A stretch of DNA of 64,000 nucleotides from an uncultured Paludibacter sp. (GTDB taxonomy: Bacteria > Bacteroidota > Bacteroidia > Bacteroidales > Paludibacteraceae). The notes beneath the pieces are model-generated. The model made no database searches. It saw only the letters and a program-made list of their open reading frames with translations, and was not told the DNA's origin. Position 1 is the first letter of the stretch, and each line of letters starts with the position of its first letter. Below, one piece after another: positions 7,282 through 27,217 of the stretch. Both the position numbers and the translations under genes were made by a program. The DNA lies in the NCBI GenBank assembly GCA_964390175.1, contig CAYMHE010000002.1, positions 13,930 through 77,929 on the forward strand, read 5' to 3'.

Positions 7282-8421
7282 ATGACTACAAATCGACGGG
7301 ATTTTCTGAAAATATCCGGACTTACACTGGGTTTATCCTTCATTGACACAAAATCGGCTGCAGCTCCGCTTATAAATTGTTTCGGTTCAAAAAAAACGCA
7401 AAAAATGAAACTATCATTCCAACTCTATAACTTAATGCTGAAACACACATTTACCGTGGCCAGCAATTCACGCACAACAACGCCTGTAGTATTAACCCAA
7501 ATTGAGTACGATGGCATCATTGGGTACGGAGAAGCATCAATGCCTCCCTACCTTGGCGAAACGCAGGCATCGGTCACAAAGTTTCTTTCAAAAGTCGACT
7601 TGTCGTCCTTTAACGATCCGTTTCAGCTGGATGAAATTCTGGCTTACATTGATGGAATTGAAGAAAAGAACACAGCCGCCAAAGCCGCCATCGACATTGC
7701 CCTGCACGATCTGACAGGCAAAATACTAAATCAGCCCATCCACAGAATATGGGGACTTTCGAAAAAAAACACGCCCAACACCTCATTCACAATAGGTATC
7801 GACACACCGGAAATTATAAAAGAGAAAACCCTTGAAGCCGGAAATCAATACAAAATATTAAAAGTAAAACTCGGGCGCAACAACGACAAGGAGATTATAG
7901 AAACCATACGCTCGGTGACCGACACGCCGCTTTGCGTAGACGTAAACCAGGGCTGGACCGACAAGAAAATGGCACTGGACATGATTTACTGGCTGAAAGA
8001 AAAAAATATAGTTTTCGTAGAACAACCCATGAGCAAAGAAAACATGGAAGATATGGCCTGGCTTACCCAACACAGTCCTCTGCCTGTCATAGCCGACGAA
8101 GCCGTTCAGCGACTTGCCGACGTAAAACATTTATACCAGGTTTATTCGGGCATTAACGTAAAACTAATGAAATGCGGAGGCATGCGCGAAGCTCACAAAA
8201 TGATAGAACTTGCACATGCACTGAATATGAAAACAATGATAGGCTGCATGACCGAGACATCCTGCGCTGTTTCAGCAGCTGCTCAACTATCGCCACTCAC
8301 TGATTGGGCCGATTTGGATGGCAACTTACTCATTACAAACGACGTATTTGAAGGCATCAAAATAATCAACGGAAAAGTCACCCTTAATGACAGACCGGGA
8401 ATAGGGATTAGAAAAGTTTAA
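7282..8421 (+). CDS. ykfB: L-Ala-D/L-Glu dipeptide epimerase (enolase superfamily) with Tat signal
   Basis: NRRDFLK twin-arginine motif; KVK, DVNQGW, EQP, ADE, KLMKCGG and DLDG motifs; follows the ykfC-like gene. Confidence 0.88.
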   Translation: MTTNRRDFLKISGLTLGLSFIDTKSAAAPLINCFGSKKTQKMKLSFQLYNLMLKHTFTVASNSRTTTPVVLTQIEYDGIIGYGEASMPPYLGETQASVTKFLSKVDLSSFNDPFQLDEILAYIDGIEEKNTAAKAAIDIALHDLTGKILNQPIHRIWGLSKKNTPNTSFTIGIDTPEIIKEKTLEAGNQYKILKVKLGRNNDKEIIETIRSVTDTPLCVDVNQGWTDKKMALDMIYWLKEKNIVFVEQPMSKENMEDMAWLTQHSPLPVIADEAVQRLADVKHLYQVYSGINVKLMKCGGMREAHKMIELAHALNMKTMIGCMTETSCAVSAAAQLSPLTDWADLDGNLLITNDVFEGIKIINGKVTLNDRPGIGIRKV

Positions 8422-8432
8422 CAGGATGATCA

Positions 8433-8622
8433 GGCAGACAGCTTAAAAGATCAGACTTCAACAGTTCAGGAGTTTTACCCCTCTCCACCCGACTCCTTAT
8501 GGGCACAACGATGTTTTATGTTTACTGTCTGCCACTTCGGGAGCTGCTATGTTTCCTGTTCTACTGCAGTCCCTCCCTTACATAGCCTTTTCATCACGGG
8601 ATGATTCAAAGTCACCCTGTGA
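8433..8622 (-). ncRNA. Candidate structured RNA / structured 3' tail downstream of the orphan gene
   Basis: Nested inverted repeats 8433-8441/8525-8533, 8444-8452/8510-8518, 8468-8473/8492-8497, 8546-8552/8580-8586, 8594-8600/8615-8622; GC-rich relative to other spacers; strand inferred. Confidence 0.35.
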
Positions 8623-8659
8623 AGATCGTCAGCACATCACCCTAAAAACACCAACGGCA

Positions 8660-9325
8660 TTAACCCGCTATTGTGGCACTTACAGTAACACTCCACGGTC
8701 CGGCTTCGCCACGCATATTTACCCAACGCAACCAGTAATACACCGTTTTACCAACCTTATTTCCATCAAATTTCATAACACAGGGACTAGCGGTGTTGGT
8801 AGCAACATAAATTAACTCCGAAACATCTTTAGGTGCTTCACCATCCACTTTCATGAAAATTTCGCACCCATGTACGCCGGCCGGTTTTGCATTGCTGTGG
8901 GCCGAGGCTTCGTCGTAATAACTAATGGAATGTTGCAAGCGCATCGAAAAATCAACAATCCCCACGGGACTTGTAGCAGGCACGGGAGTTGGCGTGCGTG
9001 TTCCGGTTTTTACAGTAAGCCCCATACGCGTGCGGTCGGCATCAGTTACTTTTGAGTTGTAGGCCAACCATTGCGATACAAAGCCACGGATTATTCTTTT
9101 ATACTGCCTGTTGGCTTCGTCTTTAGTAGCCACATCGGCCGAAGTGCGGTTTAGTTTGTTACTCGCCTTCGCATAAGCGATTTGCCACACTCTTTGCCCT
9201 GATTTTAGCGCTGCAAAATCGTCGGCATTAATACTCCAGGCGATTAGATTTGGCTCAATAATCGCTACTAAGTTTCCCTGCCATACATTAAAGTCGGCAT
9301 CGTTTTTCGAAATGTAGTCTGACAT
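8660..9325 (-). CDS. Hypothetical cytoplasmic protein: helical N-terminal domain, Pro/Thr linker, FN3-like C-terminal domain
   Basis: 221-aa ORF; TPTPVPATSP linker; C-terminal VYYWLRWVNMRGEAGPWS resembles the FN3 terminal strands; no signal peptide. Confidence 0.75.
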   Translation of the reverse strand: MSDYISKNDADFNVWQGNLVAIIEPNLIAWSINADDFAALKSGQRVWQIAYAKASNKLNRTSADVATKDEANRQYKRIIRGFVSQWLAYNSKVTDADRTRMGLTVKTGTRTPTPVPATSPVGIVDFSMRLQHSISYYDEASAHSNAKPAGVHGCEIFMKVDGEAPKDVSELIYVATNTASPCVMKFDGNKVGKTVYYWLRWVNMRGEAGPWSVTVSATIAG

Positions 9326-9430
9326 AATTTTAAGTTTTTAAATTAAACTTGATTTCTATTATTTCATATCTTATTGGTTATAAAACGTCTGTATTTAAAT
9401 TACTTTTCCTATCAACTTCATAATTTAAAA

Positions 9431-9682
9431 ATTTCTCCCGGGGCGGAAGCTTTTTCTCTCGGGGAAAAAACTTTTTCTCTCAGGAAAAATTTATTTTCTC
9501 TCGGGGGAAAAACCTTTTCTCTCAGGAGAAAAATGATCTCTCTCAAGGGAAAATCTTTTTCTTTTTGGACGGAAGCTTTTTCTCTAAAGAGAATGTCATT
9601 TTCTCTCAGGGGAAATTCTTTTTCTCTCAGGGAAAAAACTTTCTCTCCTAAAGTAGAATATTTCCGTCCTAAGGAAATTTTT
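9431..9682. repeat. Tandem array of 12 x 21-bp degenerate quasi-palindromic units (TTTTCTCTC-xGG-GAAAA-nnn)
   Basis: Units start at 9431, 9452, 9473, 9494, 9515, 9536, 9557, 9578, 9599, 9620, 9641 and 9662 with no indels. Confidence 0.9.
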
Positions 9683-9770
9683 CCATTCCTGACATAGCTT
9701 ATTGAATTGACCCTCTATTAGGAAAGCTGGATCAACTGACAATAATATTTCTGTATCAACATTTTCGGTT

Positions 9771-9827
9771 CAAATCTATAAATATAGATTGAGAAAAATG
9801 TCGCGTTTTTAAAAATGCGACATTTTT
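9771..9827 (-). promoter_or_regulatory. Minus-strand -7 box (TAGATTTG) overlapped by an 18-bp palindrome and next to a 34-bp near-perfect palindrome
   Basis: CAAATCTA 9771-9778; AATCTATA-AA-TATAGATT 9773-9790; AAAAATGTCGCGTTTTTAAAAATGCGACATTTTT 9794-9827. Confidence 0.5.
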
Positions 9828-10549
9828 GTTGAAAAGGGACAAAAATAAAGCTAAGTGAAAGGATCTGTTTTCAATATGTATATATATTTATAATTTTGAT
9901 TATGTGCAACTTAAAAATGGAGTGTGTGCCACCATAAGGCACAATAAATTCAATGTTAATGTTTGTGAATAGGGAATGCTTACAGGTGTTGTTTTGTATT
10001 TTATTTTTACGAATACGCGTTTTGCTCGCTGTATAAATATCAATAAATATTAGCTTATGTGGATTATAAAAGCAATTGACTATCAAAGGCACACTGGGCG
10101 TACAAAAACAGAAAACAAAAAACTTAAACTATGTATTGTCTGCCTTTTCAAGGAAACAAAAACCATGTTTATATTTCTTAAATAAAATTGCGTGCCTTAT
10201 GTGCCTTTTGTTGTGCTTTTCCACAATTAAATAAAACAAAAGATAATCATAAAATTTAAGCAATTTAAACACAACAATAAATAGTAAAAAACAAATCGCT
10301 TACATAAAGCCATCAACTGCTTTCAAAATTTAAATTATAGATTCTATAACAAATATGCATGTATTAGCTCCTTTACAAGCACTATTTTCACACTAAGCAA
10401 GCCACATTAACGCATTAAAACATTATTTAAATGAAAAAATACAGCATAACACCACCCCAAACAGAAACTCAAACATGCAAATTCATAATAAGTTATAAAA
10501 TGACAGCAAAAAAATAGAATCATTTTACATTTATTTAAAAAATATTATT

Positions 10550-10577
10550 TACATTTGTCGCGCTGCAAACGTTTGCA
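10550..10577 (+). promoter_or_regulatory. Promoter -7 box TACATTTG followed by operator TGCAAACGTTTGCA
   Basis: TAnnTTTG at 10550-10557; perfect 14-bp palindrome at 10564-10577 near the expected transcription start. Confidence 0.7.
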
Positions 10578-11120
10578 ACTTTAGTCAAAATGCATAAATT
10601 CTAAAGAACGATTAGCAAACATAAAAGAATGAAAGGCGAACAAACACTTTACACATTGCAGATGTAAGTTGAGGATAGCTTCCCTAAAGAGCTATTCAAT
10701 TTTCAATAACTATCAGTTGAGACAATTCTTGAAATAAATCATCTCAAAGATTTCTGTCGACAATGGCAAATAAACTTATTATAAGAACTAAATATCGTTA
10801 CCAACACAAGGGCTCTTTATGAAAACAACATACAGCATGAAGCAACTAACAAAATGCAAAGACCTGATAAACAAACATCATGTCGACAGCAATTTGTCTA
10901 CAAGCTACATATTTCAATAACAAAATATTAACATCACCCAACTCCGTTCATTTCTTGCTTCGCCATCAACAGATACAAAACAAGTTTTAACCGGACAACA
11001 GACACAATAAAACAAAAAAACCAACTTATACAATTTGAATTTAAGATGTGGACGCCTCAAGTCTTAAATTTTTTAATGAAGGCGCAATCAATCATTCATT
11101 TTATTTACAATTCCAAAGTT

Positions 11121-26515: not shown

Positions 26516-26543
26516 AAAGACACAGTGAACATATAATTTTTTA

Positions 26544-26774
26544 GAAAATGCTATTTCAAAAAAAGGAAAGGCACTTAAAAAAACAGAAAAAACTATTTAA
26601 AAAATAGCAGAAGCTATATCAAAAACAAGAGAAGCACTTTCAAAAACAAGAGAAGCACTTTCGAAAACACGAGAAGCACTTTCGGAAACAAGAGAAGCAC
26701 TTTCGGAGACAAGAAAAGCACTTTCGGAGACACGAGAAGAATCTATATAGAAAGACAAAGCATTTCAGAAGAAG
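26544..26774. repeat. Tandem array of ~11 x 21-bp units (core AGAGAAGCACTTTCRRAAACA)
   Basis: Five near-identical units at 26628-26732 with degenerate flanking units in the same register. Confidence 0.9.
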
Positions 26775-26848: not shown

Positions 26849-27217
26849 ATGAACACAAACATTATGTCAGCCGACGAAACCAAAAACAACATGCCACACA
26901 ACGGCAAGCTTCTTACAGATTATCTGCTGAAAAACGACATCAATCGCGCAGCGCTTGCCCGCAAAATGAATGTATCGAACACAAGTGTGTATCAGTACGC
27001 CGTAAGTCCATCGTTACAAATGAGCATTTTGTGGAAAGCAAGTATTGCACTCAACCATAACTTCGTAGCCGAACTGGGCGAACTGCTCCCCGTGGAACAC
27101 AAAACGGGCAACGAGATACAATTGGAAGAAGAAATAAAAGCTTTAGAAGCTCAGCTGGAAAAACTGAACCTTGAACTATCGGTTTACAAGGATGTGATCA
27201 GCAAATTCAAGCCATAA
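26849..27217 (+). CDS. XRE/Cro-C1 HTH protein with C-terminal coiled coil
   Basis: HNGKLL..INRAALARKMNVSNTSVYQY HTH; leucine heptads LEEEIKALEAQLEKLNLEL. Confidence 0.75.
   Translation: MNTNIMSADETKNNMPHNGKLLTDYLLKNDINRAALARKMNVSNTSVYQYAVSPSLQMSILWKASIALNHNFVAELGELLPVEHKTGNEIQLEEEIKALEAQLEKLNLELSVYKDVISKFKP

Follow-up and report, generated by a model that had tools for sequence, protein, structure and literature searches.

A conserved pairing of 21-bp repeat arrays with genes for orphan helical and FN3 proteins in Paludibacter and its relatives, apparently undescribed

The array, its gene and the encoded protein

We analyzed a cassette in which a row of 21-bp repeats precedes the gene for a 221-aa orphan protein, located in a 64,000-nt stretch of DNA (the window) from an uncultured Paludibacter sp. 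The window comes from contig C2 of a genome, labeled G000, that totals 2.87 Mb in 172 contigs; C and L numbers below are our labels for contigs and loci. The cassette lies on the minus strand between an enolase-superfamily dipeptide-epimerase-type gene (7282-8421, plus strand), which is itself preceded by an NlpC/P60 gene, and a SusC-type gene that starts at 11046 (plus strand). Read in its own direction, it comprises a promoter-like box, the array, a spacer and the protein gene. A preliminary description, made from the sequence alone, had tentatively joined these parts with a supposed structured RNA tail into one functional module.

Two repeat finders, Tandem Repeats Finder among them, gave a period of 21 bp for the array (9429-9680, minus strand). 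It consists of 12 degenerate, non-coding units that run in register from 9680 to 9429 with zero indels, as first described, while the palindromic character ascribed to the units proved only loose (consensus dyad test, p = 0.093). Mean self-match was 0.61-0.65 at lags of 21 and 42 bp and at background (0.22-0.24) at lags of one, three and five turns, a pattern that would point to a footprint longer than one turn and not to simple curvature. Compared with strain L098, the array differed by 23 substitutions in 242 bp and one extra 21-nt unit and the gene by 7 substitutions in 666 bp, so that the array mutates approximately nine times faster than the gene. Among contigs of individual sequencing runs, the sole length change listed inside the array was likewise one whole 21-nt unit, and seven 1-nt indels fell outside it. 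We rejected polarized growth of the array, as the identity of units to the consensus was flat along its length (0.74-0.80). Between the array and the start codon lies an AT-rich spacer (9326-9428); the corresponding gap in the family has a median of 110 bp (interquartile range 88-155). As a possible intrinsic terminator the window offers only a 6-pair stem (9449-9435), and a terminator-like hairpin between array and gene was found at 1 of 72 family loci. The genome contains a single further copy of the array, at C112:163-436 (L044), which is 76% identical, shares a leader of approximately 35 bp, and consists of the array only. It precedes an unrelated membrane-protein gene, and the same site is kept in genome G691 (L086).

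A 107-codon open frame of 7-residue repeats with no Pfam or NCBIfam family crosses the array on the plus strand (9374-9697), and we judged it a by-product of the 21-bp period. That the arrays encode a leader peptide or small protein of 7-residue repeats is hardly credible, and this explanation is largely refuted already. It would draw on the single open frame that each strand carries across the array, and on two distant homologs (P0208 and P0223, of the ~35% identity class) that are annotated with N-terminal 7-residue repeats; in these two cases gene callers have probably read through an upstream array. When column-permuted arrays served as controls, after removal of five loci that were duplicated, broken, partial or distant, sense open frames occurred in 16 of 32 arrays against 12.3 expected and any open frame in 20 against 18.3, which is about the control frequency. 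Many periods in this and the sister families described below are also not divisible by three (22, 41, 43, 61, 62, 65, 82, 83, 85, and 88).

The gene (8660-9325, minus strand) encodes a protein that matched no Pfam, NCBIfam or PADLOC family and that has no signal-peptide-like stretch by a hydropathy proxy (1.63). The AlphaFold2 model of the full-length protein (pLDDT 85.8, pTM 0.55) bears out the helical and FN3-like architecture suggested earlier. Three long helices and a short one (9-26, 34-55, 62-89, and 95-101) make up a helical domain at residues 9-101 (~9301-9023), and a beta domain begins at residue 112. Structure comparison identified this second domain as FN3 (residues 113-221, 8989-8663; Foldseek E 4e-5; VIA Z 11.3, with a root-mean-square deviation of 2.3 over 98 residues). 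Folded alone, the helical domain was modeled at pLDDT 91.7; it had no Foldseek match at E 0.001 and matched generic bundles only (best VIA Z 8.5). Such fold matches show neither kinship nor novelty. The clusters found in a protein atlas were all unnamed, with fn3 present in 18% of the members of one of them, and PHROGs gave a weak tail-fiber match to the FN3 end only (E 0.002).

The family is large, with 398 proteins found by word-index search and 5313 clusters at 50% identity found by profile, and its named relatives are records of Paludibacter and other Bacteroidales. Of 201 genomes from the same taxonomic family, 20 contained it, often in several copies, and phylum-wide it was found in 2 of 301 and 5 of 401 genomes, with the window's own genome counted; these were loose-filter searches, by which absence is not proven. 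Fifteen candidates on viral contigs were examined and none was confirmed. Across 149 diverse members the median isoelectric point was 7.0. Basic residues (lysine or arginine) were conserved at positions 68 (96%), 80 (95%), 147 (96%), 200 (93%), 98 (87%), and 205 (83%); position 72 was basic in 79% of members and is Asn in the 221-aa protein. The modeled helices are 18-28 residues long, and no helix-turn-helix Pfam family was matched at E 0.01 in the 149 members.

Arrays at homologous loci and elsewhere in the genome

Arrays accompany the homologs of this gene. In a pooled set of 81 homologous loci, from which the window, duplicates, a partial match and loci with short flanks were left out, 72 carried an upstream array, and the 21-bp periodicity expected of homolog flanks was thus found; as kin are not independent, these numbers are counts and not a test. 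The best lags across the array loci were 21, 42, 63, 84, 44, 66, and 88 only, each of them an even count of helical turns, with a mean of 10.52 bp per turn, and the detected array core had a median length of 200 bp and ended a median of 110 bp before the start codon. Within the first 38 loci, among which the window is counted, as are two duplicates and a partial match, upstream sequence was available for 37, with the peak at 21/42/63 in 33, at 22/44/66 in 3, and none in 1. A metagenome subset of 80 loci was reduced to 58 that were distinct at 95% protein identity, 49 of which had 450 bp upstream; an array at 21, 42 or 63 was found upstream in 41 of these 49 and downstream in 0 of 52. Array and gene are therefore a conserved module and not a chance neighborhood, and of the single module first proposed, this part stands while the structured RNA falls away. 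A subclade with a longer second helix includes loci with a period of 22 (L025, L035, and L037) and others that keep 21 (L023 and L038).

What is conserved is not the sequence of the units. Unit sequences were unrelated between distant loci and between paralogs in one genome, and their similarity was near background below 65% protein identity. At L100, where the protein is 85% identical, the promoter region and the register were kept and the units had been replaced. We looked for covariation of protein positions with unit sequence in 68 loci (1419 pairs at 50-80% identity); the top positions were 1, 4, 7, 8, 10, and 214, a ranking confounded by linkage and kinship.

Not every array has a gene, nor every gene an array. 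Downstream of a DUF3244-like gene, L085:1640-1960 (minus strand) retains the array, the leader and the first ten codons only, which identifies gene loss as one route by which gene-less arrays arise. A broken gene at L016, with an internal stop, has no array, and broken genes at L206 and L262 keep theirs. The family genes on C35 and C36 of the same genome have no upstream array.

Neighboring genes at the homologous loci were varied. Of the homologous loci scanned, 9 had DUF3244 upstream and 5 had AraC there, and the downstream genes were of T9SS-type, LRR, KAP NTPase, SIR2-like, FRG, and other kinds (82 open reading frames scanned). KAP NTPase, SIR2-like, FRG, HATPase, and MACPF domains stood directly downstream at L127, L130, L159, L125, L160, and L095, as in variable or defense-like cargo. 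Transposase-like neighbors made up 3 of the 82, with no consistently linked transposase or integrase, and no Rep initiator or ParA/ParM/TubZ partition family was matched among them.

The layout is not unique to this spot. The genome holds 67 non-coding periodic arrays, 32 of them with a period of 20-22 or 41-43 bp; 17 have a period of 21 with differing units, a feature of the constant-length repeat class discussed below. A second abundant class, with periods of 14 or 16, comprises 18 arrays that are 7- and 8-bp microsatellites. Arrays precede orphan proteins of 204-253 aa on C22, C44, C70, C160, and C19, and a DUF6261 gene on C8. Among the 25-30 best loci of each of four sister families, even-turn arrays were found upstream in 18 of 21 (C44), 17 of 18 (C70), 11 of 16 (C22), and 20 of 28 (DUF6261), and downstream controls held arrays in 0 of 21 for C44, 0 of 20 for C70, and 4 of 19 for C22 (at 21 or 66). 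Within the window, a second, unrelated 21-bp array of approximately 10 units (26543-26770) lies upstream of a 122-aa gene with weak helix-turn-helix matches (26849-27217, plus strand), and on C92 a 42-bp array precedes an AraC-like helix-turn-helix gene. At L039 (G000 C22:14217-16874), a 21-bp array and an orphan helical gene follow directly downstream of a 488-aa Cas6-domain gene that has an extra C-terminal part.

The DUF6261 arrays have a period of 41-42 with no signal at 21 (0.24, n = 17), and that on C8 peaks at 41/82. The two halves of DUF6261 match each other (probability 71%, E 4e-5), and the 221-aa protein weakly matches each half (probability 31-37%, E about 5e-4), so that DUF6261 may, on sequence profiles, be two copies of the helical unit present once in the 221-aa protein. 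A direct search of the protein against PF19775 (DUF6261) gave no hit, and its first three helices gave a weak profile-profile match (probability 36%). We considered whether the period is a simple ruler of protein size, which fits DUF6261 and fails for C70 and C22, and therefore describe it as family-specific only. Single-sequence hhalign comparisons of the other orphans (C44, C160, C70, and C22) with the family were not significant (probability <=3%), and the kinship of these orphans, which rests on layout, is accordingly unproven.

The abundance of arrays also suits a different explanation, in which a shared host protein, either nucleoid-associated or working together with RNA polymerase, reads the array as a DNA element defined by its geometry and controls these genes, the encoded protein being regulated cargo rather than the binder. 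Free sequence at fixed period and length would be expected of such an element; most of the 32 arrays have no adjoining family gene, unrelated helix-turn-helix genes are also preceded by arrays, and the 221-aa protein has no known DNA-binding domain. Nevertheless, the period is family-specific within one genome (41/82 for DUF6261 on C8, 21 for the others), some gene-less arrays are remnants of array-gene units, as at L085, and it is left unexplained why the arrays are carried mainly by five orphan helical families. A shared host factor that recognizes sequence is also disfavored by the unrelated units of paralogs in one genome. The family-specific period and the unrelated paralog units point to the adjacent protein rather than to one host factor, and we regard a shared host reader as rather unlikely.

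Promoter region, flanks and the strain-variable block

Upstream of the array lie the box and the two adjacent palindromes that had been described. The box, TAGATTTG (9771-9778, minus strand), fits TAnnTTTG, which we take to be the Bacteroidota -7 consensus, and is kept in L098, L099, and L100; we treat it as a candidate promoter. A 34-bp palindrome (9794-9827; 95% complementary), a candidate operator, ends 15 bp 5' of the box. An AT-rich palindrome (9772-9790) overlaps the box and is probably incidental, given that substitutions break it in the 85%-identical L100, where the box is kept.

At L100, L088, L095, L172, L174, and L177, a similar palindrome likewise precedes a TAnnTTTG box and ends exactly 15 bp from it. 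A matrix seeded by five of these six loci (L095 was not a seed) found one strong match in this genome, at 9794-9827. An AraC-family gene lies upstream at all 4 palindrome loci whose upstream gene was scanned (L088, L095, L100, and L174), and we infer from this association that the 34-bp palindrome is a putative AraC-type site. An origin from a WYL regulator found no support, the AraC neighbors being a better fit.

The position of the box relative to the array depends on the family. A box lay between array and gene at 1 of 72 loci of the present family, compared with a background in this genome of 176 of 488 genes with a box within 100 bp, and it lay at most 300 bp before the array at 23 of 66 loci (79 of 500 coding windows and 281 of 488 gene upstream regions had one). 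It lay between array and gene at 13 of 17 C70-family loci and 6 of 20 DUF6261 loci. That the array can stand on either side of the promoter favors action as DNA, and the C70-family arrays are probably outside the transcript of their gene. For the window, a transcribed leader containing the array is plausible. One metatranscriptome contig, among contigs from four runs of one study, spans 8392-9708 and so covers array and gene; these libraries also cover intergenic DNA, and the contig may therefore stem from DNA in them.

We found no conserved structured RNA tail. The 3' flank proposed for this role (8422-8659, minus strand) was no more stable than shuffled sequence on the gene's strand (z -0.31; 67 of 200 shuffles were equally good), and the opposite strand gave z -2.16. 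Rfam gave no match near the gathering score, and the flank occurs just once in the genome. Of all the loci fetched, only two near-identical strains matched it, and 77 homolog downstream regions, which fell into 40 clusters, had none in common with it beyond those strains. The edge of the variable block described below (8493/8494) also splits it, which leaves the flank outside the conserved module. Other downstream regions hold motifs of their own. A conserved hairpin-like motif with a GCGCA-containing loop, from a cluster of 18 similar regions, occurs 60-150 bp past the stop codon in 6 of the 77 (L001, L004, L006, L013, L109, and L124), where more genes follow, and is missing from the window. 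At L001, L003-L006, L008, L102, L112, L149, and L161, the stop codon is followed by short REP-like palindromes, which belong to several sequence types and may explain the hairpins seen in such tails.

The ribonucleoprotein earlier envisaged loses its tail with these results. In a more general form, a transcribed leader array would act as RNA, as a row of hairpins or as ~21-nt products to which the protein binds, whether or not a tail takes part. The rarity of a box between array and gene in this family, its presence before the array at 23 of 66 loci, the metatranscriptome contig and the palindromic nature of some units all speak for it. Sense RNA, however, folded lower than antisense in 35 of 72 arrays, which is no strand bias, and the box lies between array and gene at the 13 C70-family and 6 DUF6261 loci counted above. 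Moreover, the periods center on 10.5 bp per turn, the value for B-DNA, and an RNA helix has approximately 11 per turn. With the tail not conserved and the RNA libraries covering intergenic DNA as well, we consider action as RNA quite unlikely.

A strain-variable block of 1608 bp (8494-10101, minus strand) takes in the promoter region, the array and the gene, together with most of the 3' flank. In contigs from two sequencing runs of one study, 8493 is joined to 10102 with 117 other letters in between, so the alternative allele is not a clean empty site. Four related genomes pass from the epimerase gene to a SusC-type gene without the block, and a fifth contig stops ~135 bp past the stop codon, in non-block sequence. 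No direct or inverted end repeats of at least 7 bp were found between 8400-8480 and 10300-10570, intervals that lie outside the block ends at 8494 and 10101.

A mobile block might produce an array that has no binding role, a minisatellite left by its spread or mutation and carried along with the gene, in which replication, recombination or capture dictates the unit length. The block varies between strains and its relatives occupy many unrelated contexts, the array outpaces the gene ~9 times in mutation and grows by whole units, and gene-less copies are common. For mobility, on the other hand, we found transposase-like genes among just 3 of 82 neighbors, no end repeats in the intervals compared, and no viral locus. 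A neutral minisatellite would also not need a 5' position, a length of 200-250 bp or even turns across proteins of 25-30% identity. We think it unlikely that the array is such a by-product.

Two further features lie between the block and the SusC-type gene or reach toward it. Intergenic DNA at 10008-10262 contains 100-250 bp that are 70-78% identical to intergenic DNA at unrelated sites elsewhere (L096, L097, and L193), and one of its matches adjoins a C70-family gene. A perfect 14-bp palindrome (10564-10577) directly follows a TAnnTTTG box before the SusC-type gene and is kept in related genomes; it resembles a LacI-type operator.

Relation to known repeat systems and a predicted protein-coated array

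We found no named system with the layout of this cassette, in keeping with the preliminary description; on the features tested, the module falls outside the KfrA-type, iteron or centromere, type III toxin-antitoxin, guide-array and BrickBuilt-type families, and it may nonetheless work like the first two. Iterons and centromeres, such as the R6K-type 22-bp iterons with Rep and the F plasmid's sopC with SopB, likewise place repeats at whole helical turns beside the gene of a binder, here a presumed one. Their repeats keep their sequence and adjoin a Rep or partition ATPase gene, whereas here the neighbors are epimerase, NlpC/P60, and SusC-type genes and the units are near background below 65% identity and replaced at 85%. 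Type III toxin-antitoxin systems (ToxIN, CptIN, and TenpIN) share the order of promoter, repeat array and single gene, but they have longer, near-identical RNA repeats, a terminator and an endoribonuclease. The present family has a terminator at 1 of 72 loci, no match to a ToxN/CptN/TenpN-type domain and no RNA signature. CRISPR and TIGR-type arrays combine constant repeats with unique spacers and Cas or Nop-domain genes; the cassette units, in contrast, vary over their full length without unique spacers, and neither an Rfam match at the gathering score nor such a protein domain was found. DUF6261 (PF19775) is similar in having an array before the gene and probably the same three-helix block, to judge from the weak profile match, and differs in its four-turn period and the absence of FN3 in aligned members; the family is itself uncharacterized. 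Porphyromonas gingivalis hagB is presumably a DUF6261 member and reportedly has 42-bp upstream repeats.

Three further comparisons are with published systems. BrickBuilt, which is a P. gingivalis miniature inverted-repeat transposable element, is described in the accessible portion of its paper as a 23-nt repeat family of 19 copies with a leader, a tail and terminal inverted repeats, no gene, and flanks with reported promoter activity (PMC4596501). Going by that portion, both are intergenic degenerate minisatellites in Bacteroidota genomes, but the cassette array has just one other copy, shares only ~35 bp of flank with it and comes with a gene. KfrA of plasmid RA3 is an autorepressor that acts through a repeated operator and assembles into long filaments on site-bearing DNA; the accessible text gives it an N-terminal helix-turn-helix, a long coiled-coil tail, five fixed 9-bp repeats over the promoter and a role in plasmid maintenance (PMC7783346). 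As a helical protein encoded beside a row of repeats, KfrA so described is our working model for the cassette. In the 221-aa protein, however, the C-terminal half is an FN3 beta-sandwich with no long helical tail, and the cassette, whose neighbors are chromosomal housekeeping genes, has 12 units of 21 bp that are free in sequence and lie downstream of the -7 box. Finally, bacterial tandem repeats of constant length (20-21 nt) and variable sequence were described by Subirana and Messeguer (2021, PMC8161180), who noted the two helical turns and proposed a polymerizing protein. In its accessible portion, that paper deals with Bacillus, ties the repeats to no gene family and mentions neither Bacteroid- taxa nor the word "upstream". 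The cassette array belongs to this class. It is non-coding, with units that keep their length and are free in sequence (12 of them, each of 21 bp, where the class requires at least 4 of 20-21 nt), and one genome holds several sequence families of one length (17 arrays of period 21). The difference is that the arrays here stand 5' of defined orphan families, which supplies a candidate binder. No paper that connects arrays of this kind with these genes was found, in a search that is incomplete for subscription papers and supplements, and the accessible portions of PMC6749651 and PMC13390158 held nothing on this link. The array-gene module is thus real and apparently undescribed, and comes without an RNA tail.

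Constrained position, length and even turns, combined with free sequence, fit same-face sites for an oligomerizing protein. We therefore propose, at slightly less than even confidence, that the array is a non-coding, same-face DNA platform with a period of two helical turns, coated by its cognate, self-repressing protein, whose binding is predicted. The 221-aa protein would bind cooperatively, with one unit per two turns, and the array, which begins ~90 bp downstream of the -7 box, would when coated act on RNA polymerase as a roadblock, thus repressing transcription of the protein's own gene. Recognition would be mainly by spacing and backbone contacts with a loose sequence preference, and the fast turnover of the units means that it must be loose. 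A basic stripe on helix 3 (positions 68, 72, 80, and 84), together with basic residues of FN3, might provide the contacts. The palindrome at the promoter would be a separate AraC-type site, likely left behind when the block arrived. Action as DNA, the adjacent protein as binder, recognition by spacing and the roadblock are what we infer; autorepression is suggested by analogy with KfrA.

Several observations weigh against a coated, self-repressing array. Units turn over almost completely at 85% protein identity, unlike a tight operator, and no protein position beyond the first ten residues, themselves the closest in DNA, showed clear covariation with them. Just 11 of 32 consensus units in family arrays are significantly palindromic (dyad test, p < 0.05). 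The protein family has a neutral isoelectric point, none of its 149 members examined has a helix-turn-helix Pfam family, and it contains no recognized DNA-binding family. Gene-less arrays persist (C112, also in G691, and L085), and of the three broken genes two keep the array and one lacks it. Arrays also precede small helix-turn-helix genes (26543-26770 and C92), and 4 of the 19 downstream controls for C22 hold arrays. The C70 and C22 proteins (~230-240 aa, two-unit by eye) mostly keep a period of 21, and the profile matches between helical bundles are weak, in a fold whose members match by chance.

A wider proposal, which we hold to be possible though doubtful, is that three-helix-bundle proteins, in tandem or fused to FN3, form a large superfamily of a new DNA-coating kind that reads spacing rather than sequence and polymerizes on private two- or four-turn arrays, as mobile units that often head variable cargo genes and leave gene-less arrays behind. 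If true, it would explain the enigmatic constant-length 20-21-nt repeats of bacteria, which in the accessible portion of the paper that describes them are a puzzle with no known partner protein (PMC8161180). The link between array and protein makes this puzzle testable with small soluble proteins. Should the protein bind, a three-helix bundle with FN3 would be a DNA-binding architecture that we could not match to a solved structure, and one that tolerates wholesale change of its sites and yet keeps their phase. With more than 5000 clusters and many paralogs per genome, the family could supply orthogonal regulators defined by spacing.

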